DNA of 64,000 bases. Source: Pelagomonas calceolata. Its lineage: Eukaryota. Below are positions 430 through 59,226 of the stretch, one piece after another. The notes beneath the pieces were generated by a model that worked only from the letters and a program-made list of their open reading frames with translations, was not told where the DNA came from and searched no databases. Location of the stretch: contig CAKKNE010000004.1 of the NCBI GenBank assembly GCA_918797485.1, forward strand, positions 1,550,001 through 1,614,000. Reading direction: 5' to 3'. Position numbers and translations under genes: made by a program. How positions within the stretch are numbered: position 1 is the stretch's first letter; every line of letters starts with the position of its first letter.

Positions 430-1474
430 GGGGGGGTATTTCGCCCTATTTATCGCACTCCCCCTTTTCATGAGGGTAAGCTCTTGTTTCCCTTAGGAGA
501 ATATGGGGTGAAACTTGAAATTGTCCTCCATCCTTTTCGTTCGTTTCATTGAACTGTGCATTTTGGTATATATCATCAGGTAGCACATGGGCATTTGCCT
601 CTCAATGAATACACTTAATCCTCCACGTAAGAATTGGTAGAGTGTTCTGTAGGTTGGTTTGTGGTGGTCGTAGTTCGTGATAATGTAGCGTTGAGATGTC
701 GAATGATTATGTCAAATTCCTTAGTCGTCATACCCGCTGGGTTGCCGGCAGCTGCGCGCTGTTGGCTTACCGTTTTCTTCAATTTCCATTGCACCATTGG
801 CAACTTGAAGTTGTCTCTTGGCTTTCAAGTTATGAAAAGTACCAGTCTATCCTGGTCCTTCGTCTATCGAAATGTGCGTTGTGGCAATGAATGGACAATT
901 GACGCGCTCAGGCTAAAGCATAAAATTTTGATTTCCGATGTAAGTTCAAGTTCAACTTGACTCGGAAGTGGGGAACTTGAGTTTGATTTGTTCCTAGTAG
1001 TCTGTCCAGTCGCAGAATTGGATTCAGCGGCTGATTCGGCAGCTGATTGATTTCCGGACAATGCCAGTGGTACATTGTCAATGCTGCCTGCCAGTGCCAG
1101 TGCACGACCGGCGTGACCGTGACCGCCGTGACGCTGCTGCACGTATCTGCCATCTTTGTTGAAATGTATAGGAATTTCGAGCAGTGAATTCTCCGGGATT
1201 AATCTTGCTGTCGTCACGGCGCTGTTGGTATTATCATTTGGTTATGCCTAAGACTCGAGCCGCTGACGCCGCTGGTACCAGGTACCGTAGGTACGTTAAC
1301 GTGCGAGTGATACAAGGCCGGCAGCTGATAGTTTATGACACCAGGGCTGGAGTGGGAGGCTCAGAGTTGGTGAGAATATCACGTCGTATCGGAAAAATGC
1401 CGGAATAATGGGACAAACAAAGATAAAAAACCAGATAAGCACGTGATGGAAATTAGAGAAGCCAAGTGAAGTCA

Positions 1475-4400
1475 ATGTTGGGTCAGCTCAAAGCTACGTT
1501 TCGCTCAGCGCCACAGCATGATGATGAGCCTGAGGTTGAGTCGATTCTGAAGAAATCACGCTTCAATTTTTACCAGGAGTACGTCGAAGGGGTGCAACGA
1601 AGGAAGATGGAAGAAATGAAAAATGACTCAATCCTACAGGAACGGCTCACCCAAGCAACCGAGCGTGACTTGATGGAGAGTGAAGAGCAACTTTCTTGGA
1701 ATGCATATGAACTACCTTTGCGCAACCGAATGCGATTGATCAAACGACATTTGGACACACAACGTCAAGCTAAGGAAACACGGCTTCGACGTCTCAAGGA
1801 TGAAGTTCGACTGAAGGAGGAGGGTTTCACATACCACAATGGCGTCTTGAAGGAGTTTTCGCGATGGCGGGACTCACCAGCGTTGTTCCGCTACTACCAC
1901 GGACACAAGGGCCAGGTCTATGCTTTCAAAATGTCCGAGTCACTAGACTGCTTCCTCTCTGCGTCGGCGGACACAACCCTTAAGCTCTGGGATTTCACTA
2001 GTGGCACATGTGTCCGTACCTTTGAGGGCCATGGCAAGGCTGTACGCGACTGCGATCTGTCGCCAGGGTTCTCTATAAACAACCGCGGTGGACTTGGTCT
2101 CGCCGTTTCCTGTTCAACTGATAAAACTTTGCGCATTTGGGATGCGCGAACCGGCGGACTCCGTAAGGAGATACGGGGGCACACCGATGTGGTCTATGCA
2201 ACACGCTTTTCGCCCGACGGGCGTCAAATTTGCTCTGCATCTGCCGACTGCACCGTTCGCCTCTTTGATGCCCTTGAGGGCCACCTGAACTATATTTTTT
2301 ATGGTCATGAGTCTGCTGTCGTATCCATTTCCTACGCTCCATCTGGACGTTATATTGCAAGTTCTTCTGACTATGGTGAACGTGCTGTCAAGCTGTGGGA
2401 CGCAGATGTGCCCGCAACCAGAAGCGTGAAGCCAATCACCGTGCGTATCCAATGGACGCTTGAGGGTCTCATTTCCCGAATCACCCTTGTCACTGATCCG
2501 CCCAGAGCGCTTCTTGAGCCCCCCCAGAAAGATCGACTGTCAGACCATTTTAGTGAAAAGCGCCAGGATCCATGGGATCTGCTGACCGACGGCGAAGACG
2601 AAGAAAGCGAGCACGAACGTCGCCAGCGTGAGAAAGAGGAGAGCCGGAAGCAGTGTGATGCAGAACCTCGACTTCGAGAGTGCTCCATACAGACGGCCCC
2701 TGATGTCAAAGAGTCTGGTGGATTTACCTTGAGCGTTGCGTCGGTTGATCGATTTGGGCGATCAGCACAAGTGGATCAATACTATGGTGGGGTGACTCTG
2801 CAAATAATTTTGCGAGGTGTCAATGCTATAGCTGAGTTTTTTGTCGGCTCATACATAAAGAGTTCGATTCATGACACATTTATCGAAAACAGCGGTCGGC
2901 GCAGCGGTCAATTTTCATGCAGCTTGCCATTAGGAATTCGCCACTCATGCGATAGGGCAGCCATACATACAAGGCGCTTTGACGCTAAGTCTGAGATCAT
3001 TTTATCCTGGCAAGCGCCCTCCTGTGGTTCTGGGACGCTCATCATGCGGGCAAACGTCGCAGCTGCTGCCGAGAGCAATAACGAAATCAATCGAATTGCA
3101 CTGTCATATACACTTAAGGAGGTTGAGCCGCCGAGGAAGGGTAGTGTTCTCTCTGACCTCTCCCAACAGGCAACAACGCTAGGAGGCCATGCTACCATCT
3201 TCAACTTCACAGCTTCAATCCTCCACCAGCTCTTCATTGAGCTTATTCGCAATCGCGATACTGCTGAGGCATCAAATATGGTCAGTCCGGTGAGTCGGCT
3301 TAAGATTCGTGAAGGCCTGAAGCGTGGTGCCAACACGGCAGTTTACAAAGGCAAAGCTACTGTCATGGAGCAGGTAAGTGTCTTCTGTTCTACTCCACTC
3401 AGTAATATCGTGTTTGACTCGCAAACAATGGACTATAGGTGGATAGGTGGATGGCTAATGGAGTTTCAATTCTCAAGGATGCTAAGGACTTGTCGCCAGG
3501 TAAAAGTATGGGCGTGCTGCTCCATGGCGTGCCCCTGGAGTTGCCACCACCAATCAAGCAAGCTCTATCGAAGACCAGTGCCAGACCGATTTCTCAGGAC
3601 CTTGATCAAGCCAAGAAAGAGGTCTCACGCAGACAAGACTGGCGCAACAGAAGGCTTCAATGCTCTGAAGAGGTGCGATCGATGTGGGAGCCATCTGTAG
3701 AGGTAAGTGAGCTACCAAAGCCAGCCGCTGCGTCTGATTCATTGATTAGTGATGGTCGTTACGGTGGCAACTTGCCGCATTTGCAGATGCCGTTGCCATT
3801 TCTCTACCCCATCAACGCCAGGGGCTTTGGAACGCACGATGCTGCTCGCAAGGGTATTGAGGCCATGGACAGCCTAGGTAAGGATGACAACGGAATTGGG
3901 AGATTGGGTAGAGTGCAACGGTCTAATTCGGACCGCCAAGCCCAGGTTCTAGCCCTCTCGAAGTTTGCGCAGCTACGTGGCGTTGCGCAGAGAGCTGATT
4001 CCTCCAGACGTCGTGCTGCCCAGGTTGTTCTTCCTAGTTTTGAGAAGGCAGGCTCCGATTTGGGAACGGCAGGACACGTCCGTGCCAAAGCAGTGCTCGC
4101 TGCAGGTTTCTCTTTCCACCCCCTTCCGGACCGAATTGCGTACAAACGACTCTGTCAACTTCAGCTCGTGGCAAAGATGGCTCCAGTTACTTCACACCGC
4201 GGTGGTGTTGCTTTCCTGATGCACCAAACGGTCATCCAAGATGGGCAGAGGCATAATAATGATATTAGAGGAGGGACATTGTCAAAGAACGAAAAGCCAC
4301 TACTGCGGCGACGGAATTCTTTCCCAGCCCTTCCGGGTCTTACAGCCAAGCCAAAGTCAAAGCTACTAGACCGAAAGGATGAGACTAGATTCGCTGCACT

Positions 4401-6732
4401 TGCTCGCGTTGTCGGCGGCTGCCTTCGGACGTTCTGGGCCAGCAATGGTGACTTCCATTCTCATCACCACACGGTTAACCAAGTCGTATGGTCACTTGAT
4501 GAAAAACGGGTCGCATCTTGTTCAAATGACAAGACTGTACGTCTCTGGGCGCCCCAAACAGGCCAATGTGTACGTACGCTTGTTGGTCATGACGACGCTG
4601 TTATGGGATGTGCGTTTTCTGAGGATGGCCTCCGTCTTGTTTCTGCTGGTATGGATAACTTCCTCATACTGTGGAACACTGTGAACGGCGAAATGTTACG
4701 AAGATTCTTTGGTCACGACGACGTTATCTATCGTTGTGTACTTTTTCGTAACTCATCAGCCATGCTCTCGTGCTCATCTGATAGAACGCTTAAGTCTTGG
4801 TTCCTCACACCACAGCCACCCGATCCCCCGGCTCGACCAGCAGTATCAGATGCAGGCCAACGTGCCGCTCATGTTGCTTGGCGCGCCCCACCAGCTTACA
4901 ATGACGATATTGTTGCTTACAAGATACAATGGCGTGTCGGTCTCCGTGTGTCATTTAAGAACGAGACAACAGTTGATGGTTCAACTTTCAAAAAACAAGT
5001 TGATGGCCTCAGGCCGGGCCAGAATTACCAGTTCCGCATCTGTGCTGTTAATCGCATGGGCCAAGGAGACTGGTCAGAACCATCGGCACAGCACGTCACC
5101 CAGGTTGGCATCCCCGAGCCCCTCGAGCAGCCTGTTGTCATCCGGTCGTGGTTCCGTCCGCGTAGAATTGTTTTTTGCTGGCATGCGCCTCTTGCTACAG
5201 TCGAGGGTACAGCAATCCATCGGTTCCGGGTCCAATGTGCGGGCGAAGGTAGCGCCTTTGCCACTCGGCCTGACTTTGAAAAATTCATTACGTGGAAGGA
5301 GGGTCGTGCATTGGCACAGCACGTCGAGGCTGCCCTGAAAGACCAGATTCGAGAGGATGTGAACATCTGGCAGCGATCAGGACCTGCCACTAAGGGCAAG
5401 ACTTTCGAGGTCCCAGAGTGTGCCCTGGTCAAATTTAATCATGAGACGACTGCTATGGCCAATGACGAAAAGTTCTTGCCCGAGGAGCGCAATCCTAGAC
5501 TCCCCAGCATCAATCGGCGTTGGCGCCGCACTATCAAATGTGTTCCTCAGAATGAGCAGAAAAGACGAGACGACCTTCGATTTGCTAAATTGAACAAGGG
5601 AATTCTCATGGCCGCCGCATTTGATGAGCTCAAACCCGGGTTTGATTATCGTTGTCGTGTATCTGCAATCTCATCTGTTGGCGAGGGCCCATTCTCATTG
5701 CCAACATACAATGCCAAGACCCCTCCAGATTATCCGGCAAATCCGAGATGTCCCGTAGTCAAAGCGCTCTCTCAGACCGCGCTCAAGCTTAAATGGGTGG
5801 CACCGCTTGAGAATGGGTCTGCGATCATGCGTTTCCTCATTCGACGCAAGGATGTTACAAATGATGTTTCCGAATATACTCGACACGACTCAGAGGCGGT
5901 ATTTGACTGTCTCGAACCAGGGAAAAAGTACTCGTTTCAAATCTGTGCTTTCAATCAGATAGGACCATCCACCTGGAGCCCCTGGAGTGAGCCTACATCA
6001 ACACTTACAGCTCTCCCCAAGGTTCCGGAGCGTCCCACAGTCCTCGAAGCCACCATTACTGCGGTGACACTCCGCTGTGTTAAACCACATAACTCTGGCA
6101 AGATAATCTCGACGATTGTCGTTCAGCGGCGCGAGCTCCGACCTGGCGGTGTCAAGTCAGAATGGGCAAGCAAAACGAGATTCCCCCCTAACCCAGGTGG
6201 AACCGGAGTTGCTTGTATCTTTACTATTTCCCCCCTCGAACCGTACACGGTATACCAGTTTCGATGTGCTGCAATTAATGCGCACGGGCAGTCAGACTGG
6301 TCGCTACCATCATTCCGGATACGTACCTGCAAAGCACAACCGCCAGCTGCGCCCCAGCACCCAAGAGTTGCAGAGGTACACCCTGCAAGTGTACACCTCA
6401 TATGGATCGCCCCAGACCCTAAAGGGTGTCCGATAATTGGCCATGCTCTCGAACTCAAGCGCCTGCGCAGAGAGGTCGCGTTCTTAGATACACACGAGAT
6501 GCTTCAAACTGAAAGAAATGATGCCGCCAGCAACACGGATCGCGAGACTGATGGTATTGTCTCCTCGCTGGATATTGGCTACACGAACAAATATGAAGCA
6601 GAGAATCTCGAGCCCTCTGCGAAGTATATATTTCGTGTGGCTGCTTACAATGGTAAAGGGCAGGGCGACTGGTCCTGCTGGTCCGACACATTCACAGGTG
6701 GTTTCGCAATACCGTTGGAGACAGCACAGTAA
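1475..6732 (+). CDS. Large WD40-repeat / Reeler-like / fibronectin type III multidomain protein (~1730 aa, 2 exons)
   Basis: ORFs 1466-3700 and 3439-6732 join in phase 0 across a GT-AG intron at 3374-3438 (CAG|GTAAGT...TATAG|GTG). GH...WD repeats (GHKGQV...LKLWD, GHTDVV...VRLFD, GHDDAV...LILWN), several FN3 repeats (LRPGQNYQFRICAVNRMGQGDWS) and a Reeler-like segment (KSEIILSWQAPSCGSGTLIMRANV). Confidence 0.85.
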
Positions 6733-15299: not shown

Positions 15300-15634
15300 A
15301 CCAATCAAGCATCATCTTTCGCCTATTTGCTGCTGGTCTCAGCTGGTCTTCACCTCCTGCAGAGTAGCTGCATGCAGTGACTTCGGAGTTCGTCTGGGGG
15401 GCGCGGTGATTCTGGTAGAAACTTGAAATTTACCTGACAGCGCGTCGCGAACTGTTTTCGGCGAACTTGGAAGGCGAACTGCTTGTGGCACCTTCGAGAG
15501 CGCACGGATACGCCCTGTGCGCCGTCGAGGCCGTGGCGCGCGTCAGGCGTTGCGGCGCGTCGCACGCCCTTCCTTCATAGACAGGCAAAATGCAGCAAGA
15601 GTTAGAGTCTCGTAAACAACGCAAAATTCCCGCG

Positions 15635-15800
15635 GGTGAGATTAGCGAAAGACCCTGCCTCTAAGGCGGATGAGGACGCAGCAGGTCGAGCCTGGAATAC
15701 GTGCAGGAACGCCAAGGCAAGTACCAAGGCATGACGCCGCGGACGGCCCGGCACAGCCCAGACCCGCCCGGGTAATAGTCGATCATCGGATGCCCCCCCC
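15635..15800 (+). repeat. Diverged copy of the interior of the hAT-like MITE at 53651-54032
   Basis: GTGAGATTAGCGAAAGACC…ACGCCAAGGCAAGTACC…GGCCCGGCACAGCCCAGACCCGC aligns by eye with 53767-53890. Confidence 0.6.
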
Positions 15801-15959
15801 CTGCAAATCACCCTCCTATTTATCCGCCATTCACCCGTGTGGTCACCTCCGGGGCGTGCTAGCTAGCCTAGCGTGCGAAGGGCGGCCGATCGTATCTCTT
15901 AGATAGATTCTCTATAACTAGGCGTCTTGGCTGCGGGCGAATTGAGCCAAAGGGGCGAG

Positions 15960-16982
15960 CGAAACGATTTGGCCTGGCAATTTTAGTGGCCTGCGAACGT
16001 CGCGCCAGTGCCAGTGGAAGTGCCAGTGGCGTTTCGTGCCGCGTCAGGCGACCTATCTGCAGCCCAGCGGGCACCCGGCCGCGCCTACGCATCCTCCCTA
16101 CACCACAGGTACCCGAGGGCCCCTGGGGGACCAAATTACCAGCAGAATGGACTTCGCGGCGGAAAGTGACCCCTCTCCCCCCAGCCCGGTCGCGGGGCGT
16201 ACAAAGGGCTCTTTGGGACCCCGCAGCAAAATCGCCGCCGGCCAAGTGGCTGGTCCGACTCGAATCTCGAATATAATTCCGCAACAACATCTTGTCGTTG
16301 GGCCCTCGGGATTTCCTCGTTCGCCGCGTATACGACGGCCTGATGAATGATTCTAAAGGTCGCGGTTCGTCGAGGAACGGGGCTTTGTTCCTGGAAAATC
16401 TTGCGTTGGAAGCGAATTGGCCCGGGCCTCTGAAAAAACCGGCCGCGAAAAAGTTCGCCAATGAATACGTCGCATCGCGCCGAGTTTCCGAGCTCGCCGG
16501 CGGTTTCAAGAGAATGTCGACCCTTCATAATATGAGCAATTGGGTCGAGAAGGAACGTTTCGGCTTGCCGGAATATTTACTCAGAACGTGCCCCGCGTCT
16601 CTCCGGGAAGGGCGGAGGCTGAAAACGAAATTCCGATTGGGTTGCCACGATCTTCGAAGCTCGAGTTGTCGAATGCAGCTCGTCCGTAACGCGCAATGCC
16701 CTTGTTGCGAATCTCGCGAGTCGGAAACTATCCAACACACGTTGTTTGAATGCACAGCCTTTGAGGAAGAACGCGAGGTATTTCTTTCGAGATTATACTC
16801 GGTTCGCCCCCTCGCACGGCAATTGAATGATGAGTACCGTTGTCGGCTGGTCATGGGGCACAAGTTACCCCGGGAGATTGAAAAAACGTTGTATCGGTAT
16901 TTTATTGCTATTTCGAAGCTCCGGTTGGGTATCCTGACCGAGCAGGGAGAAGGCTCTTAGGAGCTTGTTCCTTTTTTTAGGT
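15960..16982 (+). mobile_element. 5'-truncated, degenerate non-LTR retrotransposon (LINE) 3' end
   Basis: ORF 16292-16960 carries KFRLGCHDLR…CPCCESRESETIQHTLFECTAF, the CCHC zinc knuckle that follows RT in LINE ORF2. Its 3' UTR (GAGCAGGGAGAAGGCTCTTAG…TTTTTAGGT) recurs at 63541 followed by (TTTA)n. The 5' boundary is approximate. Confidence 0.8.
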
Positions 16983-18522
16983 CTTCCTCCGACCTGACCT
17001 AGTTTGCGCGCGACTTAGACGTTGGAAAGCGTCCGAAACGTCCCGTCAGAAGCGGGAGTAAATTTATGGAGGTCTGAGGGGGGTCCGTGGCTACCTATGA
17101 CTACCTTTACTTCAACTTCAGGTTGACGTCACTGGAAGTTGAAGCCGAGATACTACGGAGAGCTAAAACCCGCGCGGTAGGGGGGCTGTAGTCTTGGAGG
17201 GCCCGCGCGCGGTGACGGGGGTGGTGCGGGTTTTCCTTGCACCAGAGAGTGCCCCCAACCCACCACCCGCGCTGGTATCCTATGATAATACGCCTAGCGT
17301 CCTAAAGGCCGCTCTCGGACGAGTTCGAATCCCCGCGGTCGGCGTCGCGGGCCATAAGTCCATTCCACTGGCGTGGCGCGTCGGCGCGTCATTCCAACGT
17401 CCGCTGGAATGCATACGTACGTCATACCGGTCGAATTTTGTCGATAGGTACCCAAGCGGCCCGCGATCGACATTCACCGAATATGCTCCCGACCGGCGCG
17501 GGTTGACATGTGGCGACGGATAGCTGGTGGACTCCTGGAGGTGCATCGCTGTTTGCGTTGGTCAGGCGCTTCTCTACCAGCAATTTGGAGATCTGTTCGC
17601 AGTCGCGCGCCGATTTAGGGCCTTCGCAGAGCACCAGGCTTTTGGGCACTCGCAGACCGCCGAGGCGGCTAGCTTTCAACGCGCGCTCTTTACGCCAGGC
17701 GCGGACGAGTTCCTAGGACCTCCACACGCGCTGGCGGCACAAATGCGGCTCCACGCTAGCCGTAGAGTGCCCCCAAAATGGCTGTCGACGTAGAAACCCG
17801 CGAGCTCAGGAGGCCCGGGGCTCGATCGCAAGTGATTTATCTTTAGCTTTGTCTTAAACTCCCCAGCCTTAGTGCTCTTCAGGCTGCTCCAAACAGCGCC
17901 ACCTCGTCGGCGTTTCGCCCACAGCAACGACGCACGACACGCTTTTCGTTTGGTTAGGGCGATGCACTGGCGGCCGGCGCGAGGATGTACGCACGGAGGA
18001 GCAAAGACTCGGCGTTGTTCGGCTCGGCGCTGCAGAAAACTAGTAGGATAGACCACGCACCTTGATGAAATGTAACGTTGCCAGAGTCCATTAAAGAAGA
18101 GAAGTCCGTGGGGCGAAATATTGGTTTCGACGCGGCCGCGGGTGGTCCAGGGCGCACTGCGCTCTCGCTGGACCGAGGTCGTTGGGGATCTACGTGTAGC
18201 GGTCGACGTCACGTCAAAATAATTCACGCATAGCTACGTGTACCATCCGCGACGCGCCGCGGGACGCTAATAGGTCATTTTTCCTATCTTGTTTTTCCTT
18301 TACCAGCATAGGCAAGTCGTCGAATGGAGTCTCTAACGGTGCTAAAACCGGTTGTAGATCGGCGTGAAATGGCTGTCCTAACTGCTGGACCATAGTCCTC
18401 GAGGCCCCCGCGTTTGCGTGTCGTTTCACCGACTCCGGTTTGATGTCGGAGTGGAGGACGTAGGTCGAGTACGGGTCCCTTTCCCCAAAACCCTACGCGC
18501 AAACTAGAGTGTGTCGCACTAG
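16983..18522 (+). mobile_element. Non-autonomous TIR element, family H copy 1, inserted between the LINE 3' UTR and its (TTTA)n tail
   Basis: Imperfect TIRs (…CCGACCTGACCTAGTTTGCGCG / CGCGCAAACTAGAGTGTGTCGCACTAG); long high-identity inverted match to 48221-48825 and 51901-52119. Confidence 0.75.
17779..18482. mobile_element. ~700-bp insertion nested in H copy 1, flanked by 8-bp duplication CCCCAAAA
   Basis: CCCCAAAA at 17771-17778 and 18483-18490; H copy 2 lacks this segment at the equivalent point. Its 5' part matches 21566-21710. Confidence 0.65.
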
Positions 18523-18550
18523 TATTTATTTATTTATTTATTTATTTATT
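18523..18550 (+). repeat. (TTTA)n tail of the LINE at 15960-16982
   Basis: Perfect TTTA run right after H copy 1; the same UTR-tail adjacency is uninterrupted at 63541-63610. Confidence 0.7.
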
Positions 18551-19082
18551 AATATTAGGCTGTTGATATTAGGAACTCCCTCGTAGCGTGCGTACCCGCT
18601 GCCTACTCTCAGTTGGCTAAGGAGAGCTAGTACATGATCATGTAACTTGAAAGGGGCTCGGACTCGGAAGTGATTCAAGTGAACAGAGGATTTTTCAGAT
18701 AATAAGCGACAGACGCCGCCCAAGGCCGGTGACTGGACCTTTGGGTGTGTGCAGGATCTGCCTTACTCGTCTCCGTGCCTTTTTCTTAATTTCAACGGAT
18801 GACGACGTCCGGGCGCCGCCGCACGTCGCCGCTACTCCAAACCCGACGACTTCGACTACACGGGCACGCAACCAGGTGACCAATGACCTTCGTCCGTATG
18901 AGGCGGGCGCAGGCGGGGGTAGAAGTGTGGCAGCGGTAGAGCGTGGGAGTATAATAGATTAAAATTGGGGTTGAGCACTGAGGGTTCAAGCGGCACGGCA
19001 GCGGGGGTTCTCCCAGCTTGTACTATGCCGGATTTAAAAGCATTCGATAAATGTACTGTCAGGTGGCTCTAGGCAACTTCCT

Positions 19083-21495
19083 TCACGTGTAGTTTGTCGG
19101 AGGTGAAAACTGAACGTCTATGTCCTTCAGTGAAATTTCCTGAAGTTGCTCAGTGGGAACACGTAGGTCTCCAATATCTGTCGTGACAGAAAAGCGCAAC
19201 TTGCATGCGAGCGAATTGGCAGTTTTACGGGTAGGGAGGCGCCGAAAGAGTACGTAGCAATGGCCAGTAGAATTACAGGTAAGCAACTTCAACATAACTT
19301 CTCCGTCATGAATATAATCCTCCACATTCCCAAGGGACTTGGCATGTACGTGGACACTCTTAATACGCTGACCATTGGGTTTATTTGTAACATGGAATTG
19401 AAGTACAAGATGCGACTCAAAGAGGTAGCCAACGCAAGCAACATGGCAGCAATGAATGCCTTCCCTAAATTCCTCGAGTACTACAGGTTGAAGCGACCTG
19501 AGGATCTTCCCCAAAGCTTCAAGCCTCGGAACTGACAACAATTTGTAGTACCGTATTAATTGGCGTTGTGTACCCTCGTGCTTAAGATCCGCATATTGCA
19601 CACGCAAGAGATTACGTTTGACAATTGCCGCTCGTCTTTCGGACTCGGTGAAATGAAGTAGATCCTAGGGCGCAAGAGTGAATATTTGAAATAAAAAACA
19701 GCGCGCCGCGAGCATACTTTGACAAGGTTTGAGCAGAGAGTCATACTCACGTTTTCAGGGCAACATTCTATTGCATTAAGAGGATGAATGCGACGAAAAT
19801 TACGGCGAATAACATCAACTGCATGCTCAAGGGGTTGGAGGCATTTGCCCGTATGTGCACGCGACGCGTAGCGTCTAGCAAGCCTCACATAAATATCAAG
19901 TGCGCTTTCCACCTCGTCTGACTTCACAATCTGCGGCATATTTTTGGCAGCAAGCCAGATAGTACTGGAGTATATCTCTGCGAGATTGTCATCTGAAAGT
20001 TTAAGAGCGTAAACATCCAAGACGGCAGAATGGGCAGCAAGTTGCGACAATATCAGCGCCTTTTCGTGCAGGAACCCCCCGGGTAGGCGCGAGAGCAGAA
20101 AATTGCATTCATATTTGTCTGAATATCGCAGAAAGTTGCGCAGTCGTGTTCGATACAGGTGCACCATCACGGGATCAACTGCAGCAAAAAGTTTGACTTG
20201 GTCAAGAAGAGTGGTCGCAAGCTCCATGTGCAATATAGCAGGTTCCTCGCCTGCGTATATAACATGCTCTAGATATGCACAAGCCACTGATGCTCCACTG
20301 TGCAGAGGAAATTGCCCCACTTGTTCAGGCACGGCGCAACCTTTACTGCATTGCAATGGCGATCCAACATAGTGAAGACTCGATTGAACATCCTTGGCTG
20401 CGTTGAATGAACCACCCTTCAAATCTAGTTTCTTCATCCAGGCAGCTATGCCAAGAGTCGCCATACCTGCATGAAAAAAAAACTCAACTAAAAGTCTGAC
20501 GCATGTTAGCACCTCGAGAACTCGTATGGGGTGGTTGGTCACTATCAACGTCATCCTTTTTACCAGACATGTCAGCGCCGGTAAAAATGGCTAGGCCCAA
20601 CGCAGGTGCTTGATAAAATACTGAAGCAACATGTTCTCGCACCATTGACACTAATGTTGGCTTTCTGGAGAACCACAGCCAACGCAAATACCTTGCTTTC
20701 CATCGCCAACCTTGAGTGCAATTCCACCTCGAATTTTCTTGCCAGTTGCACATGTCCATGATTAGTGTCAGAGCACGTTTATGTGCATGCTTGCTTCTGT
20801 ACAGCCAGAGAAGCGGCTCTACGTATGTAGGACCACCTGCAGCCATCAAAGTCGCAAGTGACTCAAGGTCACATGACTGAGCTGGATCTCGCAGCAGGGA
20901 AATAGTATCTTGAAGTCGGGGGGGGGCGCACTGAAGTCTCGCAGCAGCAAGCATGGTATCAACGAGTACAAGCCTGCAACACTTTACTGCGCCATATTCA
21001 TTTGATATCGGATCAAAACTATGTGCCAGTAACCAATTTCGCATAGTCTGAAAGTAAGAGACAACGGCCGCGGCGGTGCGTTTTAGCGTGACTCCTCTAA
21101 GCACCAATTTAGACAGAAATCCAAACCATTTCTCTGGATAACTTCGTAGCTTGTAGCCCGTTGGAATAACCTTCTTTTCCGAATCCAGCTCGATGTTAAA
21201 ACCGGATGGCCAAATGATGGCATAAAACTCAGCGACCGTTTCGGGCGCCGTCAATGCATCTAACCAGTGTTGTAACGCACGTTCTAATTCCCCATGCGAG
21301 TAAAGTGCGTAAGCGCACCTAAGTCGAGTATGGTAGCGTACATTACCCATGGAGCTATCTGTGAGTTGAATGTACGCACCGCTCTTCAATCAGTTGGATG
21401 TCTTCTTTGGGGCTATCTGTGAGCATGCAGAATGCAAGCGCATTTTGGTACTGCGCGTTATTTAGCAAGTCTTGCACCTGGTCTTTGACACTCAT
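19083..21495 (-). CDS. Vps39/TGFBRAP1-like alpha-solenoid protein with C-terminal gamma-COP appendage-like domain; no CNH domain seen
   Basis: MSVKDQVQDLLNNAQYQNAL, LLWLYRSKHAHKRAL, AYLEHVI…LHMEL, LRNFLRYSDKY…LLSRLP…HEKALILSQL resemble Vps39/clathrin-repeat segments. After the intron at 19665-19717 the last exon reads DLLHFTESERRAAIVKRNLLRVQ and runs in frame into a gamma-COP appendage-like sequence. Confidence 0.75.
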
Positions 21496-21565
21496 CTAAC
21501 CTGGCTAATACTACTAGAACTAGAATTAGCGCAAAAGGACCGGTTGACCATCTGAATCCGTAAAC

Positions 21566-22630
21566 TGTCGACGTAGAAACCGCGAGGCTCGGGGCTGGTC
21601 GCCAATTGATTTTTCTTTAGCTTTGTATAGGTCTACGGCCTATGTGCTCATCAGGCTGCTCTTGTCACGCGTTTCGCCCACAGCAACGACGCCGCGAACT
21701 CGCACAAACGGCCCTCAAAAACCTGACAACAAAACCCGACGCTAGCCGAAGCTTCCTTAGGATCCTATGCCGCGCTAGCGTAAATATATTATGGTTCACG
21801 GCGGTTGATAGTACCCTCGCCTGCCGCGTTAAGCTGGGTTTGGTCAATACATCTTTCCCGAGCGCTCGAACGCGACCGCAGTGTCCGGGGGTACCCCACG
21901 CATGTGCCCGTCTAGCGATTTCTGCTACGACGCGCGCGGGGCGGTAAAGATAGCTGCCCCTGCGCGTTCCAATGGCTTCAGTCCCTTCTCGGGCAGCCTC
22001 GGCTCAGCGAAATTTTTTCGCGGGGAGCCTCACGATGCCCGCTAAGGGCGCGTCGAAGGGCCGTACTTCAGGCCAGCTTTTCTCGGCCGCATCGCGTGTG
22101 CACTTGTCACGACCAACGCGGCTGGGTAGCCCTGGCTATGGGCTTTCCAGCGCACCAACCCGTGACAAGTGCACACGCGATGACGCTGAGCTAGCCGGAT
22201 GTAAATCCCCCACTGCGGCGGCCCTCAGCCCGCTGCTCGAAGCGAAGCTCGCGTCCGGCGCAACCCTCGACGGGTCGGCCGGGCATCCCTTTTCGAGAAG
22301 AAGAAGGAGGGAGGTCCATGCGACCACCTTACCGTGACTCTGTCCTAGCCCGACGAATGGGTCCCGGAGGAGCGGGAGCGACTAGGGGGTCGCGCGCCGT
22401 GTAAAACCCGAACCCGAACCCGCTGAGAAAATGGGCCGCTATGACGCCGGACTCGTCGTGCACGCGGACGCAATGGTTGATCGACGCTCGGGCAACGTGG
22501 CAAAAAATCGCCAGACGCATGTGTTAAAAAAGCAATGCGTCGGGCACATGCGTGGGGTATCCCGGAAACCGGAGATAGTATCGAAAGTTTAATGGTGGAA
22601 CCGTCTCTTCCTCCTATAGACCTACGCAAC
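21566..22630. mobile_element. GC-rich repeat element with nested internal inverted repeats
   Basis: The 5' end matches 17783-17940. Inverted pair 21886-21910 / 22541-22565 (1 mismatch) and perfect 22-bp inverted pair 22090-22111 / 22161-22182. The right boundary is approximate. Confidence 0.6.
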
Positions 22631-22992
22631 GCAGGGCCATCAAGGTACCCCGGGGCCGGTACTCCCGAGTCTCACAGTCGCAGGTGGGGGCCAAGCAAAG
22701 GGCCTTAGGCGCGGGCGTGGTACGATGAAGTCTGGACATCAATAATTATGTCCAAACAAGAGCCTGAGAAGCGGCTCCGAGTCCAGAGGGTGACTCGGAA
22801 GTTAGGGGGGCGGCATCTCCGAGTCCGCGTCGGTAGTGCATTTTAGCTTGGCTTTTAGTATTATTTTGGCATCATTCCAGCCTAATAGCCATCATGCGCG
22901 CCAAGCGTATACCGTGTACATCGGTACCTACGGTACGATTCTACTTCTAGTAGCATGCGTACTAGAATGTAGAGTTGTACCTGGCCATGTAA

Positions 22993-28840
<5,848 letters not shown>

Positions 28841-47900: not shown

Positions 47901-49340
47901 GACCGGCGCTTTCAAATAGTTTTGGGTGGCTCGCTCAGATTTATCGAAACCAATACCAATAGCCTGAGCACGGCAGTAATCTTGAAATGTTAGACGTGTT
48001 GATGGCTTGGTAAGCAGATCCGCCGGATTTTGCTGCCCGGGCCATCGATGTGGTCACAATGAGTCGTGGTTGAGCTTGATATTCGCGCCGCGGGCAGAGC
48101 ACTCCAATTTTCAAATATCGCCCGGCGGCCGCGGCCCCCGGGCCGGGCCGGGGCTGTGGCCTACTAGTAGACACCATGCAGAGCTAGGACCCAAGTAACG
48201 CCGCGTAATTCTTCCTTCTACTAGTCCGACTCACCCTAGTTTGCGGTGGGGTTTGGGGGCTCTCACGGCCAGCGCGGAGGCGCATTTGTGCCGCCAGCGC
48301 GTGTGGAGGTCCTAGGAACTCGTCCGCGCCTGGAGTAAAGAGCGCGCGTCGAAAACTAGCCGCCTCGGCGGTCTGCGAGTGCCCAAAAGCTGGTGCTCTG
48401 CGAAGGCCCTAAATCGGCGCACGACTGCGAACAGATCTCCAAATTGCTGGTAGAGAAGCGCCTGACCAACACAAACAGCGCTGCACCTCCAGAAGTCCAC
48501 CAGCTATCCGTCGCCACATGTCAACCCGCGGCCGGTCGGGAGAGCATATTCGGTGAATGTCGATCGCGGGCCGCTTGGGCACCTACCGATAAAATTCGAC
48601 CGGTATGACGTACGTATGCATTCCAGCGGACGTTGGAATGACGCGCCGACGCGCCGCGCCAGTGGAAGGGACTTAAGGCCTGCGACGCCGACCGCGGGAA
48701 GTCGAACTCGTCCTAGAGCGGCCTTTAGGACGCTAGGCGCACTATCATAGGCTATATTCGAATACCAGCGCGGGTGGGGGATTGGGGGCACTCTCTGGTG
48801 CAAGGAAAACCCGCACCACCCCCCCAGCGCGGTGATGCTGGGGGCGCGTCGGCGGCGGCGGCCGGGCGCCCTAACGCCAGTACGAGGGTGGGGGCCGCGG
48901 CCCTGATGCGGAGGGCGGCCGTTAGGAGGGTGTGGACGCCCTTCTCGGGGTCGCCGTCGAGGTTGATGTCGCCGACGGCCGTGACTATGTCCTTGACCGA
49001 GTCGTCGGCCATGTTGTCGTTCGGGGGCGTCGCCGGCGGCGGCGCGGCTCTCGTGGGCCTCTGTGGGCGCCCCCGGGTGGCCCTGGGCGGGCGGGGGGGC
49101 GCGCGCGGGCGCGTGTGTCGATCGGCGAGGGTTTCGCAGATTTTCGCGGGGGCGCCGGTTTCGTGCGTGAAACGGGGCGCGCCGCGTCCCTACGTGGTTC
49201 TGAGGCGGCCTGAGCCTCAGCAGACAGCGATGGATCGCGTAGAGTTGCAACCACGGTGATGCTGGTATGCGAGAGTTAGTAGGGGGATCGAGGACTAGAG
49301 CGTGCGGGTATCAGCGCAGCGCGCTGGCCCTCCAAGACTA

Positions 49341-51879: not shown

Positions 51880-52561
51880 GCTAGACTAAGCACTTAGACT
51901 AAGCTCCCCTACCGCGCGGGTTTTAGCTCTCCCGTAGTATCTCAGCTTCAACTCCCATTGACGTCAACCTCAAGTTGAAGTAAGGGTAGTCATAGGTAGC
52001 CACAGACCCCTCTCAGACCTCCACAAACTTACTCCTACTTCTGCTGTGATCTTCCCGACTCGGACGCTTTCCGACGTCTAAGTCACGCGCAAACTAGCCT
52101 GAGGTCAGGTCGGAGGAAGTAAGATTTGGACGCATCCTCCATGAGCCCTAATTAAGATAAAATAAATTTCCCTGCGAAGCTTAATACTGCGTGGAGTTCG
52201 ACATTTAGAGAGGGGTCAAGCGCAATAGTCGACGTTGATTTTATCATGATATTTGGCGCAATGCGCGTAAAACCACGCGCCGGCCGAATGGCGGGAAACT
52301 TCTGCTGAGGCGCAGGTTCCGTACTAGTATGCTAAAATAACTTGAATGGGCTGACCAAAGAATGCAATGCGTGAACAAGACGACCATCGGCACACCACCT
52401 CAACCTGGCTTCTAAAATGGGCTGAGCGGCACACCACCCCAACCTGGCGTGCTACGAGAAAGGCCGACAATTCAAGGAACTAACTGTAGATGTACCATTA
52501 ATTTTATAGATTGGTACATACATAATATCAGGCTATATAATATATCGTCTCTCAATCGCCA

Positions 52562-54220: not shown

Positions 54221-57200
54221 CTACAAGTCAGCTTCGATGATTTTCTCTTGGACGTCAGTCACCATGGAAGCTGGAGCTTCAACCATGGACATGTCATTGA
54301 CCCCAGAGCTCATGCTTGCCTGATCGACCGGTGTTGGCTGCGGTCGGGCAGCTTCTGCCTCAATAGTGATTCTGTCCACATCGTCGGCCAGTGACGCCTG
54401 CTCATCTCTTGATTTATTCCGGTAGACAACCATGGCCAAGATGAACAGAACAGCAGCTCCGGCAACAACACCACCAATGATGCCGGCGCTAGCCGCGTCG
54501 ACCCCCCCTCCCGAATTGCTGCTTGAACTCGACCCGGAATCGCTGCTTGAACTCGACCCGGTCGATCCCCCCCCATCCGTGGGCCCCCCATCCGTGGGCC
54601 CCCCATCCGTGGGAGCAGTGGGGCTAATTGGCGAGGTAGGGGTTGAAGTTGAGGGTCTTGGTGTGGGCATGTCCTTGGTGGGCATAGGCGTGGGAAAGGC
54701 TCCAGTGGGCATTGGCGTGGGTCTTGGCGTGGGTTGCTTTGTCGGCCTTGGCGTAGGAAAGCCACCCGTAGGTTTTGGCGACGACGTCGGCACCCACGTG
54801 TCTGTGGTAGGCATTTGGGACGGTTCGTGGGTATCTACTGTACCCACAGAAATGCCAAATAAAACGAAAGCCTGGTGGGCGCCCGGTTCGCCAACCATCA
54901 GATCGTCAATGCCGTCATTATTGACATCAAATGTGCCAAGAGCGACAGCCGCACCGGCCTGCGCTCCAAGATTAGTACCAGTAAGAGCAAAACCATCGCT
55001 GCCATCCAACATGCGAACATCAATACTGGCATGCGCCGGAACCAGGCTAGCAGAACCAAAAACAACATAGGCGGTGCCGGGCTCCGAAGCCGTACGGTCA
55101 AGGCCGTTGGACGCACCAATAAGAATGTCGTCAAGACCATCGTTATTTATGTCCCCGGCACCTGCGACAGCTGAACCAAGCGCACCTCGTCGTAGGGATG
55201 AAACGATAGGCATGGCCTTCTTTGTATTCTCCTTTTTCTTCCAGTTATCAGGTTTGCCAAGCATGATGTATACCATGCCCGAGCCATGGTCAACGCCAGG
55301 AGCTCCGACGAGGAAGTCAGCATAGGAGTCGCCATTGACGTCACCAGCTGCGGAAACAGCAACACCAATATAACGCTCCTCGCTGTCTTTATCTCCCCCC
55401 TCAGATGAGGTGAACGTCATGAAGCCTGGACTGTTATCGGAGTCTGGATCGAGATCGTCGCACTTATATTCAGCGGGGGCATCATCATTGCGCATATACT
55501 CGTTACCAAAAACAACACAGACAGTAGCAGCAGCAGGTGCTCCAACCGCCACATCATCATAGCCATCGTCGTTGATGTCGCCGATGCCGGCAACCGATGA
55601 TCCGAGGTCAGATTGGTCATGGGTGAGGCGAAATCCCTCGGTCGGACCAAAAGTCGTAGCATCAACAATTGAAGCTGATAAGGCCGTCGAAGCCATCCCA
55701 TAATATACATAGGCGCAACTAGACTGCGGGGCGCCGATGACTACATCGGCATAGCCGTCATTGTTGAAATCAAGAGTCGAGAGAGATGACCCAAAACCGT
55801 CGCCGTTCGACCCGCCTTGCAGTTGGATGTAGTCAACACCAAGCATCATGTCGCTCTCTAGAGAAATGATATTAGTTTCCGGAAACCCATCACCTCCAAA
55901 TACTACAAAAACTGTGCCCGTGCTGTCATTATCCGCCGGACAGGCCAACGCCATGTCGTCATGGCCATCAAGATTGAAGTCTCCCGCTGATGCAACGACT
56001 TGTATACTACAGGGGGCTTCTATGGCTGCACCGACGAAGTTGCCAGAAGTCTGTGTGGTGATAGAGTTGAGATCGCCCGCAAAAATATCATCGTTGGCAG
56101 CGCCGTAAATCAGGTAAGCTTTGCCATCGGCGGCCGCGACGAAGTCATCAATACCATCAAAGTCAACGTCACCAATGAATGCTATAGAGGGGAGCGTTTC
56201 TTCTCCGCGCAAGATAGAACCCGCTGACATCCCTTGTATGGAGCTCAGGGCAACTTTAGAGGGAAAGGGGAGCTTTTCGTTGCCCAGAGAGTAGGTCGGA
56301 CGCGAAGGAGCGGGCGTGGGCATTGCAGATGGACCAGTGGGCATTGTTGTGGGTGCCTTGGAATTAAAATGTTGGCCAAATATGACGTAGGCATTGCCTC
56401 CCTTGTTAGAGGCAGAACCCTTCTGGAATACCGATGAAACTATGATATCATCTATACCGTCATTGTTGAAATCGGCGGCCGCGGCAACATCGAAGCCAGC
56501 ACCGTCGCCAGAGTGTTCGCCATACATGGTAAAGCCATCGAAACCGTTAAGATCAGAAAGATCAAAGGTTCCCTTTTTCTTGGACCCTCCAAGCACACAA
56601 TAGACGGTACCAGCCATTTCGCGCGCTTGGGGAGATGAAGTAAAGGCCCCGATGAGCACATCGTCGAGGCCGTCACCGTCTACATCACCTGCGCTGGAGA
56701 CGGAGTAGCCAGCCATGTCCTTAGCAACATCGCCACGAAAGGAGATGTCAGCCCGGACAGTTGGGCCGAAGTGCTTGCGGCCCAGCACTATGTAAGCAGC
56801 ACCCCGACGATGTTCAAAGCCTGCCGCGCCAACAATGATGTCTCCGTAGCCGTCACCATTGAAGTCGCCAGCCTTTTTAACATCACCACCACAAAGATCG
56901 CCCTTTTTGGCACCAAGTATGCCAAACCCGTCGGAGCCATCCATTTCGTCTAGAAATAAAGTGCCGTGGTATTGAATACCCCCAAATATCACAAACGCCG
57001 CACCGCCATCTCCGTACTGGGGAGCGCCCACTGCGATATCGTCATGACCATCACCATTCACGTCATCGAGTGCCGCCATCTCGAGACCCAGCAGGGCTTT
57101 CTTACCGGCACCATCTTTATTCTTCAGTGCAAGAATTACACCCCGTGGGTTCATCGACCCGCCCTTACCAGCAAGATTTTGGAGTGGTAGGATCGACCGG

Positions 57201-58363
57201 TCGAATTCGTTGGTTCCGTAGACTAAAACAGCTTCGCCCACGTCGTCCACGTGGCCATTTTTGGAGTCGGTCTCCACGCCAATGAGGAAGTCATCAAAAC
57301 CATCGTCGTTGAGGTCAAAGCCACCCGAAATAGATTGACCGACGCCTCGAAAATTTGCATCGCCTTCTATGCGAAACCCACGCTCGATCGGAAATCCTGT
57401 GTGCCCGGAGCTAGTGAGATCCCAGGCGCCGTGGCCCGTCAAAGTTGTTCGATCTCCGCCAAAGAAAACGTAGACCCGCCCTTGCGAAACCAAGGAAGAA
57501 CCCACACCATCTCCCGAGGCCCCAATTAAGATATCATCGAAACCATCTCCGTTCACATCACCGGCCGTCGTGACTTGCGAGCCAAATGCACTGTCTTCCT
57601 GATCGGTATTATCCTCTCGGAGGATCATGAATGCATTTTCTCCCAATGCGTTGATAGCGGTCTCAAAGGTTCCAACATTTGATTTCTGATCAGCCCACGG
57701 CGGATATTTTGACTGTAGCCGGCGACGACGAGCGGAGGAGTCATATTCACTTGAACCAAAGAGTACGTAGACATGTCGCACCCCCGGAGCACCAATGATG
57801 ATATCGTCCACACCATCACCATCAACGTCGCCGGCCGGTGCCACAGATGCCCCCAGAAAGCCTAAGTCCGTAAACCCCTGGAAGGACGCGGCGTTCACGT
57901 AGTACCCATCCCGACGACCAGAGTTGCTCAAACCTAAGTCACTGTCCGGCCCAAAATTCATATTCCCGAGATTGAAATCAACGCCAAAACCGCCGTCCGC
58001 CGAGGAAGCGATCTTGAGCCGCTCTAGCCTCATGCATCGCTCGTGTGCCTCGATCAAGTTGCTGCATTCATCTTCGTCCTTGTTATTCGCATTCAAGCAC
58101 TCCTCTTTCTGCTTCCTTGTCTTGGGGCATCGGTCTTCCTCCGCGACGGTTCTGCTCGCCTCGCCATACTCGTATGAGTACGACAGCAGATCCTCGAATT
58201 CAAAAGTCGCCACTAACCCTTCATCACGTTGCCCCCCAAGCATGTTCAGGCGGTCGCTCGCCGGCGTCGCGCCGCGAAGAGCTTCGTAGTCCACGAATGG
58301 CGCGGCGCGTGTCATCAAGGCGCCAGAGCACGCCCATGCGAAGGCGAGCTGAACAGACCGCAT
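54221..58363 (-). CDS. Intronless FG-GAP (integrin-alpha-like beta-propeller) repeat type I membrane protein, 1380 aa
   Basis: Signal peptide; many G.SV..AGD(V/F)NGDG.DD(I/L)IIGA…G.(A/V)YV(I/V)FG repeats; Pro/Thr-rich stalk; TM helix GIIGGVVAGAAVLFILAMVVY; short acidic tail. Confidence 0.9.
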   Translation of the reverse strand: MRSVQLAFAWACSGALMTRAAPFVDYEALRGATPASDRLNMLGGQRDEGLVATFEFEDLLSYSYEYGEASRTVAEEDRCPKTRKQKEECLNANNKDEDECSNLIEAHERCMRLERLKIASSADGGFGVDFNLGNMNFGPDSDLGLSNSGRRDGYYVNAASFQGFTDLGFLGASVAPAGDVDGDGVDDIIIGAPGVRHVYVLFGSSEYDSSARRRRLQSKYPPWADQKSNVGTFETAINALGENAFMILREDNTDQEDSAFGSQVTTAGDVNGDGFDDILIGASGDGVGSSLVSQGRVYVFFGGDRTTLTGHGAWDLTSSGHTGFPIERGFRIEGDANFRGVGQSISGGFDLNDDGFDDFLIGVETDSKNGHVDDVGEAVLVYGTNEFDRSILPLQNLAGKGGSMNPRGVILALKNKDGAGKKALLGLEMAALDDVNGDGHDDIAVGAPQYGDGGAAFVIFGGIQYHGTLFLDEMDGSDGFGILGAKKGDLCGGDVKKAGDFNGDGYGDIIVGAAGFEHRRGAAYIVLGRKHFGPTVRADISFRGDVAKDMAGYSVSSAGDVDGDGLDDVLIGAFTSSPQAREMAGTVYCVLGGSKKKGTFDLSDLNGFDGFTMYGEHSGDGAGFDVAAAADFNNDGIDDIIVSSVFQKGSASNKGGNAYVIFGQHFNSKAPTTMPTGPSAMPTPAPSRPTYSLGNEKLPFPSKVALSSIQGMSAGSILRGEETLPSIAFIGDVDFDGIDDFVAAADGKAYLIYGAANDDIFAGDLNSITTQTSGNFVGAAIEAPCSIQVVASAGDFNLDGHDDMALACPADNDSTGTVFVVFGGDGFPETNIISLESDMMLGVDYIQLQGGSNGDGFGSSLSTLDFNNDGYADVVIGAPQSSCAYVYYGMASTALSASIVDATTFGPTEGFRLTHDQSDLGSSVAGIGDINDDGYDDVAVGAPAAATVCVVFGNEYMRNDDAPAEYKCDDLDPDSDNSPGFMTFTSSEGGDKDSEERYIGVAVSAAGDVNGDSYADFLVGAPGVDHGSGMVYIMLGKPDNWKKKENTKKAMPIVSSLRRGALGSAVAGAGDINNDGLDDILIGASNGLDRTASEPGTAYVVFGSASLVPAHASIDVRMLDGSDGFALTGTNLGAQAGAAVALGTFDVNNDGIDDLMVGEPGAHQAFVLFGISVGTVDTHEPSQMPTTDTWVPTSSPKPTGGFPTPRPTKQPTPRPTPMPTGAFPTPMPTKDMPTPRPSTSTPTSPISPTAPTDGGPTDGGPTDGGGSTGSSSSSDSGSSSSSNSGGGVDAASAGIIGGVVAGAAVLFILAMVVYRNKSRDEQASLADDVDRITIEAEAARPQPTPVDQASMSSGVNDMSMVEAPASMVTDVQEKIIEADL

Positions 58364-58499
58364 CGTCGAAAATTTCGACTGCCAAAAATTCTAGGATACA
58401 ATTTTTGATTGAACTTCAGCATAGGCTGACCAGCGAGATATACGAGTTACTGGGGCAACTAGGCGTTAATCCCACCAGTGCCCAAGATGGGTCACGGAA

Positions 58500-59110: not shown

Positions 59111-59226
59111 CTAGCGTGCGTTGGCCGCTTACTCTCACTACACCGCACAAATTGAAAGCAAGCTGAATTTTAAATCTCTCGAGAACATTAGACGAAGTCG
59201 ATGATCTGCTTATCGTGATATTCGCA

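Follow-up and report, generated by a model that had tools for sequence, protein, structure and literature searches.

The window analysed here is a 64,000-nt stretch of the Pelagomonas calceolata contig CAKKNE010000004.1 (assembly GCA_918797485.1, positions 1,550,001 to 1,614,000), and the gene under study lies on its minus strand. PolyA reads define four exons and three GT-AG introns, and the joined coding sequence encodes 750 aa. The 5' UTR (21496-21735) is unspliced; read ends cluster at 21735/21740, and neither a joint nor a listed loose end falls at 21496. Coding exon 1 (21380-21495, aa 1-39) starts the Vps39-type alpha-solenoid and aligns to aa 405-450 of the relative P0203, directly past the CNH region of that protein. 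It is followed by intron 1 (21319-21379, 61 nt; 22, 6, 15 and 48 spliced reads in the four runs), coding exon 2 (20513-21318, aa 39-308), which continues the alpha-solenoid and is helical in the model, intron 2 (20467-20512, 46 nt; 33, 59, 31 and 62 spliced reads), coding exon 3 (19718-20466, aa 308-557), assigned to the C-terminal half of the solenoid by family profiles against yeast Vam6, the phase 0 intron 3 (19665-19717, 53 nt; 118, 79, 68 and 135 spliced reads), and coding exon 4 (19083-19664, aa 558-750 plus the stop codon). The 3' UTR covers 18559-19082, and contigs from the datasets X4 and X7 stop at 18559/18560, where the raw-read depth drops.

All three introns are backed by spliced polyA reads in 4/4 runs, the runs representing one sample, and the strand-specific polyA depth is unbroken from about 21735 to 18560. 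The solenoid exons and the last exon are found together on single spliced contigs, one in X4, which is the sample of the polyA runs, and the other in X7, which is a metatranscriptome of seawater from a separate study. Intron 3 is spliced in both contigs, and the assumption of the preliminary description that the two parts of the protein belong to one mRNA is thereby confirmed. Intron 1 is kept in some transcripts, e.g., in the X4 contig, and an X13 contig over the gene is unspliced. Between the joined 750-aa frame and the database protein P0011, whose cluster has 199 members, there is a difference at a single position, and the frame is intact in several variants. An Rfam search of 15300-23100 gave no match.

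Several other reading frames are found in the window. On the plus strand, a pair of long frames that overlap (1457-6732) contains WD40 repeats as well as five FN3 domains and is probably one spliced gene, and a 1622-aa helical-repeat-like frame at 23707-28575 has no Pfam match at E<0.1. A WW-domain exon (22993-23292, plus strand) lies 5' of the 1622-aa frame, with a transcript start near 22988. An 818-aa open frame at 59167-61623 (plus strand) has no Pfam match. On the minus strand, FG-GAP repeats are numerous in a 1389-aa open frame (54221-58390), in which aa 88-122 also match a cysteine motif like that of COX17 (E 7e-6, above the cut-off); the product of this frame looks like a surface protein, which would be an odd partner for such a motif.

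The protein was modelled with AlphaFold2 from a 61-sequence alignment (mean pLDDT 89.9). The predicted layout is an alpha-solenoid (residues 1-548), a single long helix (549-597) and a beta-sandwich up to residue 741, and the modelled helix passes directly into the sandwich. Exon 4 is open over 193 aa and contains the peptides quoted in the preliminary description, which had seen in it one frame leading from a helix into a gamma-COP appendage. The exon-4 translation matches Pfam COP-gamma_platf (PF08752) at E 2.2e-17 (64 bits, cut-off 25), and gamma-COP chains of human/bovine/mouse type in the PDB are matched at E 7e-8 to 4e-7. In the predicted model, the appendage beta-sandwich or ear (aa 598-746, 19098-19544) superposes on residues 616-765 of 1r4x with a VIA Z of 18.2 and an rmsd of 2.5 A over 143 residues at 27% identity, while alpha-adaptin and GAE ears score lower in the same fold search (Z 9-10.5). 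The fused ear descends from gamma-COP. However, the window protein stops 4 residues past the sandwich, so the platform subdomain (PF16381) is absent, and the gamma-COP-derived part is the sandwich half of the appendage only. The claim of a gamma-COP appendage therefore stands for the beta-sandwich and falls for the platform. No match to Adaptin_N was found in the window protein (Pfam).

For the solenoid, searches of the PDB with single exons or with the single window protein matched no Vps39 chain, and family profiles alone did so. These profiles match yeast Vam6 residues 756-971 at E 1.7e-9 and 4.4e-9. Profile A3 matches the N-terminal half of C. thermophilum Vps39 (7zty_A) at E 9e-25 and yeast Vam6 (7zu0_E) at E 1.7e-9, the latter match stopping at residue 971, and it matches gamma-COP at E 6e-27, beginning at positions adjoining the end of the Vam6 match. 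None of the other HOPS/CORVET subunits is among the matches listed for this profile at E<=0.1, and many of the phmmer matches are CNH/Vps39_1/zf-Vps39_C proteins. Pointing the other way, the window protein alone reaches only E 0.002 for Vps39_1 (aa 177-235, about 20730-20906), which is below the Pfam cut-off. Among the structures listed by the fold searches were clathrin solenoids and, from the HOPS entry, chain A, with poor rmsd, but not the Vam6 chain; because the Vam6 chain is poly-alanine in that entry, its absence is no evidence against homology. As for Vps39 versus Vps3/TGFBRAP1, the profile matches in the PDB are to Vps39 only, Atlas matches tie at 0.83, and the trees are without a labelled Vps3 reference. 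Atlas gave no usable match for the window protein and leads below 0.9 for a full-length relative.

The long C-terminal helix (aa 549-597, 19545-19744, across intron 3) is one 49-residue helix in the model. In the alignment it shares its register with the corresponding helix of Vps39-like proteins that end in a zinc finger, its conserved residues are L576, L577, R578, L584 and K585, and it is the best-conserved portion of the join. It is the homologue of the helix through which Vps39/Vps3 bind Vps11. When the proteins are aligned on the helix, the ear starts where canonical proteins begin their zinc-finger strand and cysteines, i.e., it sits at the zinc-finger position. The preliminary description had proposed a Vps39-type scaffold in which the appendage replaces the zinc finger, and this agrees with the family profiles against Vam6, with the helix register and with the lack of a zf-Vps39_C match to the window protein in Pfam.

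The search for homologues by phmmer over 50%-identity representatives gave 264 matches, and the best 150 were taken up. In 30 of the best 150 of the 264 representatives, the ear follows 2-8 residues past the end of the solenoid profile, and in all of these fusions (30/30) 4-20 residues remain after the ear. The profiles used in this join scan were built from the family itself, and all 30 fusions also pass Pfam PF08752. In the Pfam scan, which covered 105 of the best 150 representatives, PF08752 and zf-Vps39_C were never found in one protein (0 of 105), and PF16381 was detected in 4 canonical gamma-COPs only. A third homologue search, covering proteins of 1291-3685 aa only, added one new protein. 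The carriers with a species name are the pelagophytes Chrysophaeum taylorii and Aureoumbra lagunensis, the brown alga Discosporangium mesarthrocarpum, and Chrysoparadoxa australica. Since the same join recurs among named carriers of several classes, the fusion is an old ochrophyte feature. The architecture is shared with other stramenopiles, and its suspected lineage specificity applies only to a group as wide as several classes of ochrophytes. That neighbouring genes were wrongly joined, or that the locus is mis-assembled, is scarcely conceivable and is refuted by three observations: the join lies within one exon, spliced reads and spliced contigs span solenoid to ear, and 30 independent cluster representatives (of the best 150 of 264) have the identical join. 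The domain swap is real, it is old, and the gene that carries it is expressed.

One fusion member, P0173, is labelled as the foraminiferan Bolivina argentea and is nested with brown-algal-type sequences. The label is doubtful and the sequence possibly represents prey or contamination; it was not counted as a non-ochrophyte carrier. In UniRef, the Chrysophaeum protein is named after the coatomer appendage, and the swap helps to account for a possible mis-annotation of Vps39 in this group of algae.

The solenoid-only tree, which left out 22/63 rows for time and coverage, places every fusion in one subfamily (100/100) on a long stem of 0.58, and unites the window gene with Chrysophaeum and Aureoumbra, the two pelagophytes (100/100). 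Other end states occur in the same subfamily, namely a clade without ear or cysteines and P0040, which has a zinc finger. The bare-end sister clade (P0038, P0039, P0043, P0048, P0049, P0059, P0065, P0067, P0086 and locus L003) is well supported; its proteins stop 13-51 residues into or past the helix, and 9/10 rows reach the helix. In free trees the fused rows are not one clade and the backbone of the subfamily is without resolution, and a single origin of the fusion is not rejected for either part (p-AU 0.41 for the solenoid and 0.47 for the ear). One large clade of fusions is divergent; in the other fusions, the ears are mostly 34-52% identical to the gamma-COP P0150 and 24-37% identical to Dunaliella gamma-COP, values that would fit, and do not prove, a gamma-COP donor from within the lineage. 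Four proteins without an ear (P0017, P0034, P0045 and P0051) are nevertheless nested among the fusions; they look like gene calls running into an intron, and were not counted as losses. P0156, which grouped with a fusion in FastTree, dropped out of that clade in IQ-TREE, and P0151, a long row that was 38% filled, was removed.

The preliminary description overlooked that the window copy is without a CNH propeller. An in-frame stop lies directly 5' of the ATG, thus no propeller is encoded, and the CNH part of 8 relatives gave no tblastn match in the window. The propeller is present in the full-length relatives P0021, P0028, P0031 and P0203. The ear branch of the window copy is 1.05 compared with 0.065 for the nearest full-length relative, and the solenoid branch is 0.79 compared with 0.27. 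The window copy thus evolves faster than this relative, and is therefore a poor model for the family. This could mean that the fusion is functional in the family and that the window copy is decaying or relaxed, with the propeller lost beside repeats and the ear drifting. Such decay would account for the lack of CNH coding sequence, for an ear branch that is the longest among pelagophyte-type rows, and for the repeats and the 23-nt inverted-repeat pair at and upstream of the 5' end. However, the intact frame across variants, the steady polyA expression, the clean splicing and the confident predicted fold all speak against it, as does P0088, an 82%-identical fragment that starts at the same place as the window protein. 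A metagenome scan with CNH motifs reduced 294 candidate stretches to 3 loci, 0 of which belong to the window lineage, and this argues weakly against a full-length spare copy. On balance, we consider decay of the window copy quite improbable. P0018 was considered as a second propeller-less gene and rejected, as its cluster mates P0203/P0204 have the CNH part and the loci L001/L002 encode the full 1219 aa.

Repeats lie around the 5' end of the gene and beyond its 3' end. A repeat of 130-150 nt occurs inside the 5' UTR (21565-21692) and, 3.8 kb apart and 72% alike, at 17782-17933; the former may be the source of the new start once the CNH part was lost. Just upstream of the gene, 21888-22563 has 23-nt inverted repeats 630 nt apart and an inner 30-nt hairpin pair (22082-22190). 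This element resembles a MITE, and reads that stem from its other copies stack on it. At 16277-17777 there is a LINE-type element remnant (zf-RVT, E 0.008, weak) followed by repeats, which recur at 48252-48823 (93%) and 51896-52119 (85%).

In COPI, the base of the sandwich is reported to bind beta'-COP and the platform to bind ArfGAP (PMC5482573, PMC3385859). When fused ears were compared with canonical gamma-COPs, of which only four were included, the motif L[TS]E.E[TM]EY (E.EY) was found in 0/38 fused ears and 3/4 gamma-COPs, NT...Q.L in 1/38 and 4/4, and EY.LEDLE in 1/38 and 4/4, while fold-core motifs were kept in 27-36 of the 38 fused ears. Because the ArfGAP-binding platform is absent and the gamma-COP signature motifs are eroded, a COPI link is unsupported. 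The same two observations lead us to abandon both the earlier label of a COPI accessory-binding module and the proposed link between trafficking machineries. An ear that had kept its binding to beta'-COP would let the tether capture COPI-coated vesicles or compete with gamma-COP for uncoating. Some fused ears are indeed near gamma-COP (P0028 is 52% identical to P0150, Pfam E 6e-36), but the near loss of the canonical motifs (0-1/38) beside a retained fold core, which is indirect evidence as regards the beta'-COP interface, together with the missing platform, makes kept beta'-COP binding appear unlikely. We are similarly doubtful that an early ochrophyte grafted a coat ear onto Vps39 in such a way that, in diatoms, pelagophytes and brown algae, HOPS/CORVET takes direct hold of COPI-coated vesicles or of accessory proteins of the coat; if this is true, the three end states (ear, bare helix and zinc finger) would offer a rare marker for relationships deep within the ochrophytes. 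As the platform is absent and the canonical motifs are almost gone while the core motifs persist, a repurposed module is favoured over a kept COPI contact.

The protein might also have left HOPS/CORVET and act, by itself or within a different complex, as an adaptor made of solenoid and ear that binds short peptide motifs in the manner of AP-1 gamma/GGA ears. Its ear fold is that of the gamma-adaptin/GGA ears (Z 9-10), several of which have been solved with peptides, and both the long family stem (0.58, 100/100) and the loss of the CNH part in the window copy would suit such a change of function. In contrast, the helix for anchoring to Vps11 has been conserved, and it keeps the register seen in canonical Vps39-like proteins. 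In addition, Table S2 of Klinger et al. lists T. pseudonana with a single Vps39 (1461 aa) and no Vps3, and Phytophthora infestans with Vps39 and Vps3 that bear Vps39_2 (PMC3785458). The fusion protein P0190 of the divergent clade has 1461 aa, the length of the T. pseudonana Vps39, which is a match in length only; if P0190 is that protein, T. pseudonana would have no other Vps39/Vps3 in that table. A role as a free-standing adaptor therefore seems improbable to us.

With moderate confidence, we favour a HOPS/CORVET-type subunit that is anchored to Vps11 by its helix and carries the ear as a repurposed, putative binding module. In yeast Vps39 and Vps3, the long C-terminal helix is described as pairing with the Vps11 helix and RING, which anchors the subunits to the core; the Vps39 tail touches the Vps11 RING, and the tail-less Vps3 anchors to Vps11 anyway (PMC9592082, PMC11187117). 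As the helix is the best-kept portion of the join, the window protein is probably still part of a HOPS/CORVET-type complex. A single ancient fusion would have drawn the ear from the lineage's own gamma-COP gene, the long helix would dock the protein onto Vps11 of a HOPS/CORVET-type complex, and the ear would be placed beside the Vps11 RING, where it may pack on Vps11, recruit a new partner, or both. The window copy would additionally have shed its CNH propeller. This loss need not end Rab binding, since the site predicted for Ypt7 in yeast Vps39 lies on the solenoid and not on the propeller (PMC9592082, PMC11187117).

Our literature search, covering titles and the beginnings of abstracts, found no description of the fusion; it could still appear in supplementary domain-architecture tables of papers on algal genomes. 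Both HOPS/CORVET and COPI are ancient, conserved machines, and they are usually treated as separate. A coat-to-tether domain transfer conserved in several algal classes suggests that the Vps11 hub can accommodate a C-terminal module of a very different kind, and, for the vacuole pathway of these algae, the fusion points to an interaction that has yet to be characterised.

Compared with known systems, the alpha-solenoid and long helix are homologous to those of Vps39/Vam6 in HOPS and its paralogue Vps3/TGFBRAP1 in CORVET (7ZU0 chain E, 7ZTY). Where canonical Vps39 has zf-Vps39_C, the window protein has a 150-residue beta-sandwich, and the N-terminal CNH propeller of canonical Vps39/Vps3 is missing from the window copy. 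Yeast Vps3 has nothing past the long helix, unlike the window protein with its ear, whereas the proteins of the bare-end clade end after the long helix as yeast Vps3 does. With gamma-COP (COPG/Sec21; PF08752; 1R4X, 1PZD) the window ear has in common the fold, the sequence homology and a short lead-in helix. In contrast to gamma-COP, the window protein has neither an adaptin trunk nor PF16381, its surface signature motifs are eroded, and its ear sits on the solenoid of a tether rather than on a coat adaptor. The GAE ears of gamma-adaptin/GGA are, as in the window protein, a lone C-terminal beta-sandwich on a trafficking protein (Z 9-10), but here the likeness is at the level of the fold only, with 7-17% identity.
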